Virus record (IMG/VR): IMGVR_UViG_2671181040_000012
From: a virus
Lineage: Duplodnaviria > Heunggongvirae > Uroviricota > Caudoviricetes
Length of the DNA: 13,210 bases
Reading direction: 5' to 3' (one strand)
A program made the position numbers. Numbering within the stretch: the first letter of the stretch is position 1; each line of letters starts with the position of its first letter. Of this stretch, positions 9,001-12,000 are shown in pieces.

Positions 9001-12000
9001 CGAATACCCAGAACAGGGATTGCCTCGTTTACATTAACAGTGACGGAGGTTTGCCCTTTCTGAACCTGCGCATCAAGGTTAGTTACCGCATCACCCGTTT
9101 TTACTTCCCACGGAGTTACCTTCGCTACCGGAGTCAGTGTACCGCCAATTACTACAGAAGTACCATTACCGTTTTGCCCCCAGCCAGAAGCCATCGCTGA
9201 ACAAGACACCACAGCAGAAGCCGCTACTGCCAGCGCAATCAGTGTTTTTTTCATTGAAAGATTCCCTATAAACATTAACTGAATAAAAACAGCAACCAGA
9301 TAAAAACATTCATATCAAAAGTGTTACTGTTTACCCGTAAACATCACAAACGTTGCAATTCACGTTGTCTTTAAAAAAGTACGGGAGTATCCTCCCGTAA
9401 ATTAGAAAGACTCTGATTGCTTACTTGTTATTGTTTACAGGGACGCATGTTAGAGTTTAATCGGACATTAGTTTTTAAACTAATGCTTCCCCTTCCGTAT
9501 ATTCTCTTTATTTACCGTCATCGCACTGACCTGTATTCAGCAGGCTGTTCCGTGGCACATCCCGGGATATTTAATTACGCCTTACGGTAGCTATTTCCTG
9601 CGGGTCCTTTCCGGAACCATTAACACCACGGGGCGGCAGACGCGCAGATTTTCACTATTTATGAAAATTTTTCCGGGAAAAAGCATGTCGGTACTTCTTG
9701 CATGTAACATTATGTTTTTATTGAAACTAACTATCATAAACATACGACACCATAACGCCGGAAAATCCCGTTTTTCAGGCGTTTCATGTCGGAGGTGGTT
9801 TTTGATGAGGATTTGATAAATGAATGTTAACAAAAAGAGACTGGCAGAGATTTTCGGTGTTGATCCGCGCACAATTGAACGCTGGCAGATGCAAGGGCTT
9901 CCCCATGTATCTGGTGGCGGAAAAGGTGTGGAGGTGACTTTCGACTCTGCACAGGTGATCGAATGGTATGTACAGATGGAGAAGGAGATCGAAAACGAAA
10001 AACTCCGCAGGGATCTTGATGATTTACGTGCTGCTGGTGAATCAGATTTACAGCCAGGCACAACAGAGTACGAACGCTACCGCCTCACCAGAGCACAGGC
10101 TGACGGGCAGGAACTGAAGAACGCCAGGGAGACAGGAGAGGTTATAGATACCGGCTTTTGTATGTATGCACTGTCTAAACTGGCGCAACAGATTTCAACC
10201 ATCATGAATAGCTTGCCCCTTACGATGCAAAGGCAGTTTCCCGCGATGACTCCGGCAATGATCGATGGCCTGAGGAGGGAAACAGCACGCGCCTGTAATG
10301 CGTGCGCTAAAACTGCCGATAACCTGCCTCGCATTCTGGGAGACTATCTGATGGAAACAACCGGAAACGTGCCGGAGAAATTACGGCAACAGAAAGGTGA
10401 GTGACAGCCGCGCAATTATTGAACAAAACTGAGAAAGGATCTGATAACGTCATTTTTGGCCCAGAATGACCACTGTCAGATCCTTTCTTTTTTTGATGAT
10501 TTTACGATTAAACAATGAGTTACAGAGAAGAAGAACGGATCTGACTTTTCCCGAAAAATTTTCATAAATAGTGAAAATCTGCGCGTCTGCCGCCCCGTGG
10601 TGTTAATGGTTCCGGAAAGGACCCGTGAAAATTCCCCGCCCCTCGCGGCACTGTGAAAGGTGTTTTTTAGGGAGCCCCTTTTCAGCCCATAAAACTGAAA
10701 AAATAGCGGTTTTTTAGTCTGCTGGTGGAGTGAGTTTTTTTTAACGATGCCAGCAATGGCGCGGGTTTGGCGTGGTTTTCTCTGATAGGTTTTATCTATC
10801 AAGTCTGTGCACACCTTCCCAAAAAAAAGTTTTCGAACCTGCGGCGATGTGAATAAGGGTTGGCGGGCGGTCCCGGACAGCCAGGGCTGCAGGGATTTGA
10901 TCCGCCCCTCCCGTTGATGATAACCGTTATCAATTGCCCAACCAGCCGGATAGTGACATATCGTGACGCGCCGTGACACTGCCACCAGCACAATAATGAA
11001 CGTAAAAAATCACATACCAGGAATGCGACGGCCTGAAGCATTGCCAGAACTCCCCATACCACCACAGCGGAGAACGGCAAAGCACAGATAAAAAAATACC
11101 CCGTGATTACGGGGCGGAAGGATAACAGCCATCAGGAAATGTTAGCTACCACAAAGCAAATAACCATGAACAACGATTAAGAGTACGGAGAATAACCGTT
11201 CGTTCATGCCAGATAATGCCATCAGGCCAGGACGATGGCAACGCACTGGCTATAACGCATCGCCACCAGCCTTGTGGGTTATCACGTAGCAGTACCGGGA
11301 TCCCGGTATCGTGATGCGGCATGATTCAGCGATAAGCATCACCGCTCCCGCTCACATTTGACACAGGCAACTCCATCTGGCAGGTGAAAATCAGATTTAT
11401 TTATATATTTCAATTAATTGCGAACTGGTCTAATGACAGGGGAGAAAAAAGATTGTACAGGTAAAAACAGAAATAACTTTTAATTATCAATACATTACCA
11501 CACATGCTGCCGCCGCCATGAAAATGCAAAAACCAGCCTTTTTTCGCGCGTCCATCGCCCCGCGGTAAGGGTACCCCACCAGGAGGACCCACGACGATCG
11601 GGGTATTTCATCAACGTCATGCGTTATGCCGGATTAGGTGCGTACGTAATACGTATGCACATCCCGGACAGGAGCAGCCAGAATTGCGCCTCTGACGTTG
11701 TTTTGTGGTTATCCCCCTGCCATGAGTCATCGCAATAGTTTTATGCGCCCTGCGTTGCGCTGGTGGGCTTTTCCACCATTGGTGGGAAACATGGCACCAC
11801 ATCCACCAGCTTAAACGCGCTTCACCTTCCCGGCATCAGTCGCCACAATTACGGCATTGTTTTCCATCACCCTGGAGGCCATGACAATGACCGAAGCCGA
11901 AATGCTCAAAATGATTCGCCAGATTGCCGGGATCAGACCACCAGCAGGCAAACAGGAGGCCACGCAGCCGGACAGCGTTATCGCTGAGAACTATGCGCGT

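Follow-up and report, generated by a model that had tools for sequence, protein, structure and literature searches.

A satellite-borne small terminase gene of the Nu1 family next to a phage-21-type cos site in an Escherichia coli island

The IMG/VR virus record IMGVR_UViG_2671181040_000012 is a stretch of 13,210 nucleotides, here called the window, that is 99.9% identical to Escherichia coli MB06102, in which tRNA-Pro/yejM and yejO flank the element. The gene terS, at positions 9820-10404 of this window, encodes a true homologue of the small terminase subunit (TerS), carried by a phage satellite and of a documented kind. We consider it probable that the protein is a functional Nu1-family small terminase of a phage-inducible chromosomal island (PICI), and that with the cos site directly upstream, called cos1, it forms a self-contained packaging-recognition module that recruits the large terminase subunit (TerL) of a helper phage. 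The features discussed below are collected in Table 1.

The open reading frame (ORF) is real: it starts with an ATG, with a GAGG read from the sequence 9 nt upstream, and its product of 194 amino acids matches the Pfam profile Phage_Nu1 (PF07471) with 233.4 bits against a curated cutoff of 30 bits (E = 1.3e-69), residues 1-162 corresponding to positions 1-162 of the 164 of the profile. The best sequence match in the PDB is to residues 1-98 of lambda TerS (6hn7_B, E = 9e-39), and the others include the DNA-binding domain (DBD) of lambda Nu1 (1j9i) and those of further lambda-like TerS proteins. The motif GGGKG, which forms the wing of the winged helix-turn-helix (wHTH), occupies residues 32-36, a numbering shared with lambda. 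A scan for promoters and terminators around the gene gave nothing above shuffled expectation. In phage operons, terS overlaps and is followed by terL; here, a tblastn search with the lambda and PhiR5_1 TerL proteins has no match in the window, and the RefSeq annotation of the island lists no TerL. The island TerS is thus a member of the Nu1 family that stands outside a phage terminase operon. On all these points, the original prediction of a Nu1 homologue with the GGGKG motif and no large terminase partner is borne out.

The AlphaFold2 model of the protein, with a predicted local distance difference test score (pLDDT) of 77.6, consists of a winged helix-turn-helix followed by five long helices, with a short sixth helix in the tail. 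A fold search with this model retrieves the phage 21 DBD 7lwr, whose sequence is that of phage 21 gp1, with a template modelling (TM) score of 0.89, a root-mean-square deviation of 1.1 Å and 71% identity, and lambda TerS 6hn7_B with a TM score of 0.86. The same prediction had left room for an Rpp-type factor and proposed a structural comparison with both families: the Nu1 side of that comparison succeeds, and the Rpp side does not, RppC appearing at rank 25 in Foldseek with 56 aligned columns in the DNA-binding domain only. Membership of the Rpp family was also rejected on sequence: RppA, taken from the CFT073 genome, aligns only over residues 3-32, with 11 of 30 positions identical, and RppC reaches E = 0.009 over residues 5-52. 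Similarity to both proteins is limited to the helix-turn-helix (HTH), and the full Nu1 architecture is kept. Rpps have 135-154 amino acids and lack the C-terminal TerL-binding region of TerS (PMC9026076), whereas the island protein has 194 and a C-terminus of the Nu1 type.

This C-terminus had been described as unrelated to that of Nu1 over its last 50 residues, which is an overstatement. Over residues 1-68, 69-103, 104-140 and 141-181, the island protein is 60, 83, 43 and 24% identical to lambda, 71, 86, 41 and 27% identical to phage 21, and 74, 86, 65 and 51% identical to PhiR5_1; the corresponding values for lambda versus phage 21 are 53, 83, 43 and 32%. A drop in identity after residue 140 or so is therefore normal for the Nu1 family, lambda and phage 21 themselves falling to 32% there. 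The Pfam match extends to residue 162 and the BLAST alignments to phage TerS proteins reach residues 176-181; only the last 13 residues (the NVPEKLRQQKGE tail) have no phage counterpart. The C-terminal 40 or so residues of TerS constitute the domain that binds TerL and determines specificity (PMC4669245), and the premise that the island protein lacks a relative of this region has to give way: what it carries is a diverged and selectively constrained homologue. Among the 11 sister island genes compared, all with an intact ORF, the ratio of nonsynonymous to synonymous substitution rates (dN/dS) is 0.17 for residues 1-68, 0.16 for 69-140, 0.24 for 141-181 and 0.22 for the tail, values that are rough pairwise means, with few sites in the tail. 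The C-terminal region is under constraint and free of decay. The idea that the tail is an in-frame relic of the N-terminus of TerL was dropped: the tail is an insertion, and comparison with the terS/terL junctions of five phages, as DNA and in three frames, gave no convincing match.

The closest relatives of residues 141-181 and the tail are found in the TerS proteins of 180 amino acids of other E. coli PICIs (Nissle 1917, strain 94-3024), which are 66-73% identical to the island protein in 141-181 and have an unrelated DBD (30%) and a different cosB. Next come PhiR5_1 (51%), the contigs L023 and L025 (44%) and the prophage TerS of PapRG-04-4 (41%). The latter has an unrelated DBD as well (27%), and a C-terminal half that is similar (57% and 41%). 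The DBD of the island protein, on the other hand, is closest to phage proteins: 81% identical to that of the IMG/VR phage contig L025, 74% to PhiR5_1 and 71% to phage 21. These TerS sequences form a mosaic, in which a phage-like DBD is joined to a C-terminal module common to island TerS proteins with unrelated DBDs. On the side of the partner, phage TerL proteins vary over residues 1-48 (38-62% identity) and are about 95% identical over the remainder. The variation of the TerL N-terminus follows that of the TerS C-terminus only roughly, the two closest pairs of TerS C-termini, L023-L025 and PhiR5_1-PapRG, being among the closest pairs of TerL N-termini; such a pattern fits the known interaction between the C-terminus of TerS and the N-terminus of TerL.

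The 190 bp upstream of terS show collinearity with the phage 21 left end: cosQ, cosN, R3, I1, R2 (inverted) and R1 follow each other, with an I2-like stretch between cosN and R3, and the ATG is at bp 190, as against 189 for phage 21 and 191 for lambda. The evidence for cos1 is this collinear homology, the count of short R motifs being by itself not above chance. Four positions in the right half, bp 8, 9, 10 and 12, distinguish the cosN of cos1 from that of lambda, and the flanking CG/CG is kept; variation in the right half of cosN is common in nature, and lambda TerL tolerates it (PMC4669245). The recognition helix of the protein, RTIERWQ (residues 17-23), is identical to that of phage 21, with Glu20 as in phage 21 where lambda has Gln; residue 24 is Met in the island, Ser in phage 21 and Glu in lambda. 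Residues 20 and 24 set the specificity of the lambda and 21 proteins (PMC4669245). Since the recognition helix and cos1 are both of the 21 type, the island TerS and the cosB of cos1 (cosB1) would make a matched pair.

In a search of INPHARED for a phage with the island cosN (GGGCGGCAGACG), no full-length match to cos1 among those listed was above 81%. In IMG/VR, the exact pattern is found only on satellite contigs of 11-14 kb, and the closest phage-borne relative of the module formed by cos1 and the DBD is contig L025, with cosN GGGCGGCAGCGG. The module probably originated as a copy of the left end of a genome like that of phage 21, cut off after terS.

The surrounding element carries an integrase-alpA-primase/replication module with a probable origin, falls within 10-20 kb, has no tail or lysis genes and occupies a specific attachment site, features by which it is, as far as gene content can tell, an island of the Gram-negative PICI type. 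The satellite setting that had been proposed for terS is thus supported: the island lies at tRNA-Pro, it encodes integrase, AlpA, DUF4222, a DUF927 primase, SSB, ProQ and PerC, and terS is directly 3' of an island cos. No capsid, tail, lysis or TerL genes were found in the island, which also encodes an Icd-like protein and, on the opposite strand, a K88/F4 fimbrial subunit. Directly 3' of the DUF927 primase gene, TAACCCGCAAA recurs every 21 nt together with inverted TTTGCGGGTTA; these iteron-like repeats are probably the replication origin of the island. A direct repeat of at least 12 nt of the tRNA-Pro 3' end, as expected of attR, was not found within 16 kb, up to yejO in the locus L001.

The exact protein is recorded on 92 contigs, and TerS proteins of this form, with 193-200 amino acids, have satellite-like contexts in every related locus inspected and never stand beside TerL. 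By comparison, most Nu1 homologues of species-representative genomes for which downstream sequence is available are immediately followed by a detectable TerL, among them all enterobacterial prophage loci but one (L046). A peptide scan of the species-representative genomes with the single TerS protein found nothing, and an alignment-based scan yielded 72 loci, most of them phage-type and none with the satellite-type tail; many of the 72 are almost certainly contaminating lambda DNA. In PapRG-04-4 (L005/L014), the same TerS cassette is carried by a sister island that lies inside a prophage, between head and tail genes, which is the configuration of a helper-embedded PICI.

Just downstream of terS lies a second complete cos site, cos2, facing cos1. 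Its cosB, which we call B2, contains three R' elements in the lambda layout R3-I1-R2(inverted)-R1, where 0.01 matches to the motif are expected. B2 is homologous to bp 25-124 of lambda (72%), and its R' elements are lambda R sites in which GTT is replaced by AGA in all three copies. It is nearly invariant among related islands, across two families of islands with different TerS types. In INPHARED, no phage with a B2 cosB was found, the best matches to cos2 being at 72-75%, and no protein that reads B2 turned up. Most relatives have different cosN in cos1 and cos2; in the window, conversion has given cos2 the sequence of cos1 over its outer arm. The layout in which two cos sites face each other across a gene is present in twelve of the twelve 194-amino-acid-type islands first surveyed, in eleven islands of the 180-amino-acid type, and around rppA in the prototype EcCICFT073, an island with two functional cos sites (PMC6092414, PMC6739421).

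These observations suggest the following sequence of events. When a lambdoid helper is active, the island would excise and replicate. The N-terminal wHTH of its TerS would bind the 21-type R elements of cosB1, the central helical domain would oligomerise, and the C-terminal domain would capture the TerL of the helper. The captured TerL would then act on island concatemers, nicking the island cosN and packaging island DNA into helper capsids. The sequences point to possible helpers among phages with a TerL N-terminus of the PhiR5_1 type, because the C-terminal domain of the island protein is, among phage TerS proteins, closest to PhiR5_1-like ones. Both bioRxiv 10.1101/2022.09.14.508007 and PMC6092414 count a TerS gene among the core components of Proteobacterial PICIs, and the latter noted TerS-encoding E. 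coli PICIs in 2018.

Several observations weigh against this reading. In 2018, transfer tests of two TerS-encoding E. coli islands gave from <1 to 110 transductants/ml, with no helper identified (PMC6092414). Some sister islands keep both cos sites without terS: in L102 (2427-2950) and L112 (1459-1982), a cos1 with a 21-type cosB and a cos2 with B2 are separated by only about 520 bp, with no terS, so the gene can be lost while both sites are kept. The C-terminal domain is just 51% identical to that of the nearest phage TerS, and TerL binding is consequently not assured. R3 and cosN are separated in cos1 by 1 bp more than in phage 21, and the spacing of these two elements matters in lambda (PMC9026076). 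Finally, the TerS of a 21-type helper would also recognise cosB1, so that with such helpers the island protein is not obviously needed.

Three other explanations have to be compared with that of a functional small terminase. The island protein might behave as Rpps do and pair with the TerS of the helper, the mixed dimers or oligomers ignoring the helper cos and reading the island cos while the helper TerS brings TerL. The gene indeed sits where EcCICFT073 has rppA, with a forward cos1 on one side and an inverted cos2 on the other, and the wHTH fold is common to Rpp and TerS (PMC6739421); mixed oligomers are plausible because residues 69-103 are 83-86% identical to the lambda, 21 and PhiR5_1 proteins and the region of the DBD dimer is conserved. 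However, homology to RppA and RppC ends after some 30-50 residues of the HTH, the island protein is 40-60 residues longer than Rpps, and it keeps under purifying selection a homologue of the TerL-binding domain that is absent from Rpps (PMC9026076). We regard this mode of action as improbable.

A protein that only interferes seems to us distinctly unlikely: it would act as a decoy that titrates the helper's TerL or poisons its TerS oligomers and is not needed for island packaging, the island being packaged by a helper TerS acting on one of the cos sites of the island. A 21-type helper TerS could in principle read cosB1 directly, the islands that retain both cos sites without terS are compatible with it, and PICIs generally interfere with their helpers (PMC6739421). 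Yet the tight conservation, at the level of base pairs, of the way cosB1 and terS are arranged, and the match between helix and R sites, argue for a recognition pair acting in cis, and we found no interference data. There is, lastly, the possibility that cos1 and terS are an inert remnant, a fragment captured by chance from the left end of a decayed lambdoid prophage. The module does derive from a phage left end and has no TerL, and this copy of the island shows no attR repeat of the length sought, but the ORF is intact in each of the 11 sister copies, with dN/dS around 0.2, the same precise cassette boundaries recur in many unrelated backbones at several attachment sites, and the exact protein is found on those 92 contigs: we hold this explanation to be very unlikely indeed.

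The segment bounded by the two cos sites, 1,025 bp long, behaves as a block. Of 5426 complete E. coli genomes, 186 contain a match to it, most E. coli matches spanning exactly 9601-10625, and it keeps the same boundaries at several attachment sites and in numerous island backbones that are otherwise unrelated. In a sister island at the same tRNA-Pro site (L006), the backbone and both flanks are collinear with the window while the segment 9601-10625 runs the other way, the breakpoints coinciding with the ends of the arms. The identical TerS P0033 is found at an attachment site on the phoQ side in L118, where it points the same way as the island, and in L117 and L119, where it is inverted; in this comparison, identity is 99.0% over the cassette and 94-98.5% over the flanks. 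Comparing L117 and L118, variants of cosQ and of the spacer stay with the flanks, and I2 and cosB move with the cassette, so the exchange point lies inside a stretch of 25 identical bp that contains cosN. Of the islands of the 194-amino-acid type inspected, 12 are co-oriented and 6 inverted; all eleven of the 180-amino-acid type are co-oriented.

It is tempting to see here an invertible packaging cassette, flipped at cosN itself, in islands that each carry two or more cos sites differing in cosB specificity and may be packaged by different helper terminases, a proposal that is conceivable, if on balance doubtful. Where both inverted cosN bear the same cohesive end, terminase would cut the two and free a fragment whose sticky ends are identical; this fragment could re-anneal in either orientation with no recombinase. 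Recombination by RecA between the cos arms is the mundane alternative, and it fits the observed inversion as does the cut-and-flip scheme. If the proposal holds, inversion could switch the expression of terS or the direction of packaging, and the 21-type cos1, the B2 of cos2 and the relics of two outer cos sites (cos3 and cos4, Table 1) could let different helper terminases package the island. In the literature searched, we found no description of a cassette inversion, a search for inverted cos sites returning mostly irrelevant matches. The double, convergent cos sites of divergent specificity, with their invertible cassette, are more unusual than terS, a gene of modest interest in itself, and they could bear on how satellites widen their range of helpers.

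Table 1. Positions of the features in the window (strand "." where orientation varies).
Feature	Position	Strand	Details
terS, Nu1-family small terminase, 194 amino acids	9820..10404	+	ATG start; Pfam, PDB matches, alignments, model
Domains of TerS	residues 1-~68; central; 141-181; tail		wHTH 1-~68 (GGGKG wing 32-36); helical central domain; TerL-binding-domain homologue 141-181; 13-amino-acid satellite-specific tail
cosQ-like element of cos1	9602..9614	+	GGGTCCTTTCCGG; aligned with lambda, 21 and PhiR5_1 cos regions; read from sequence
cosN of cos1	9631..9642	+	putative 12-nt cohesive end GGGCGGCAGACG; same register as lambda and 21
cosB of cos1, phage-21 type	9683..9797	+	alignment with annotated phage 21 cosB
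R3 of cos1	9685-9692		core ATGTCGGT; within cosB1
I1-like A/T-rich stretch of cos1	~9700-9727		within cosB1
R2 (inverted) of cos1	9740-9751		within cosB1
R1 of cos1	9786-9793		core ATGTCGGA; within cosB1
cosB of cos2 (B2)	10432..10544	-	three R' elements, lambda R3-I1-R2(inverted)-R1 layout
R' elements of B2	10532-10544(-), 10476-10488(+), 10432-10444(-)		TCAGATCC(G/T)TTCT; motif scan
Outer arm of cos2	10546..10625	-	80 nt, repeating 9601-9680 in inverted orientation (repeat I1, 98% complementary)
cosQ of cos2	10612-10624	-	within outer arm
cosN of cos2	10584-10595	-	within outer arm
I2-like region of cos2		-	within outer arm
cos-bounded cassette, 1,025 bp	9601..10625	.	block-conserved; both orientations relative to island backbone
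Satellite backbone	1..7850	+	Pfam, RefSeq annotation of identical locus, repeat scan
Integrase	1-1242	+	backbone
AlpA	1768-1974	+	backbone
DUF4222	3537-3851	+	backbone
DUF927 primase	3848-5971	+	backbone
Iteron-like repeats	5997-6146	+	backbone
SSB	6571-6993	+	backbone
ProQ/FinO	7030-7566	+	backbone
PerC	7563-7850	+	backbone
cos3-like relic	7958..8030	+	cosQ-like and cosN-like parts; inverted repeat I2, 73 nt, 89%; aligned to cos1 by eye
cos4-like relic	11518..11590	-	inverted partner of cos3; inverted repeat I2, 73 nt, 89%; aligned to cos1 by eye

Comparison with known systems helps to place the island protein. Phage 21 gp1 and lambda gpNu1 belong to the same family and share its order of domains, and their cognate cosB, also arranged R3-I1-R2-R1, is upstream at the same distance; the DBD (71% identical to 21, 60% to lambda) and the recognition helix are of the kind seen in phage 21. 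Unlike these phage genes, the island terS is encoded by a satellite and has no overlapping terL, its C-terminal domain is of another subtype (24-27%) with 13 extra residues, and it is followed by a second, inverted cos. The TerS proteins of other E. coli PICIs, such as the one of 180 amino acids from the island of Nissle 1917/ATCC 25922 and those of the TerS-encoding E. coli chromosomal islands (EcCIs) of Fillol-Salom 2018, occupy the same slot between cos1 and an inverted cos2, with no TerL, and share the C-terminal module including the tail ETTGNVPEKL.Q.KGE, but their unrelated DBD goes with a cognate cosB of the GGTGGTGGTGG type instead of the 21 type. RppA, RppB and RppC, of PICIs of the EcCICFT073 type, take up this genomic slot as well, and some 55 residues at their N-terminus have the wHTH fold of the island protein; they too come from satellites and determine the choice of cos for packaging, but they differ in the dimerisation region, which in Rpps is alpha3-alpha6, and act by binding the helper TerS. 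The closest functional analogue is the TerS of Staphylococcus aureus pathogenicity islands (SaPIs), TerS_S, a satellite TerS homologue that redirects the helper TerL to satellite DNA, although it belongs to an unrelated TerS family, serves headful (pac) packaging and not cos packaging, and is accompanied in SaPIs by a separate inhibitor, Ppi. By analogy, the strategy of the island protein is most likely the cos-system counterpart of that of the SaPI TerS.

To our knowledge, the hijack of helper TerS by Rpp is the only packaging trick of cos-type E. coli satellites that has been worked out. Islands with a complete Nu1-type TerS have been mapped since 2018, and in the literature searched neither a helper nor a mechanism is reported for them. 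As a single gene call, terS is ordinary and already annotated, RefSeq naming the protein WP_053887911.1 "terminase small subunit", and a satellite TerS is an already recognised route to packaging. What the present analysis can offer is three testable predictions: a DNA target for the protein, the 21-type R sites at 9683-9797; a part that would contact the helper, residues 141-194, the module common to island TerS proteins with different DBDs; and candidate helpers, phages whose TerL N-termini resemble those of PhiR5_1 or of the PapRG prophage.

We now turn to the outer parts of the window. The cos3-like and cos4-like relics form a pair that nests around the pair formed by cos1 and cos2, and in L009 and L017 the segment between these relics also appears rearranged. 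In sister islands, a cos3-like site is followed some 190 nt later by a gene for a protein of 169 amino acids with a DUF1441 HTH (13509-14018 in L006): site and gene could possibly represent a second module made of a cos and a recognition factor. That the DUF1441 protein of L006 is an Rpp was considered and rejected, with no match in the PDB. In the window, positions 8056-9275 hold instead an ORF of unknown function and, on the opposite strand, the orphan subunit gene of the K88/F4 fimbrial family.

The right-hand 2.6 kb (10626-13210) contain conserved ORFs and a second PerC gene on the forward strand (12902-13210, 42% identical), and could be what is left of a second island. In the scans of other genomes, lambda Nu1 and A were met at about 99-100% identity on short contigs of Kitasatospora, Paenibacillus, Bradyrhizobium, Shewanella and others (L033-L040, L044, L057-L064 and further loci); in these unrelated assemblies they are almost certainly contamination by lambda DNA.

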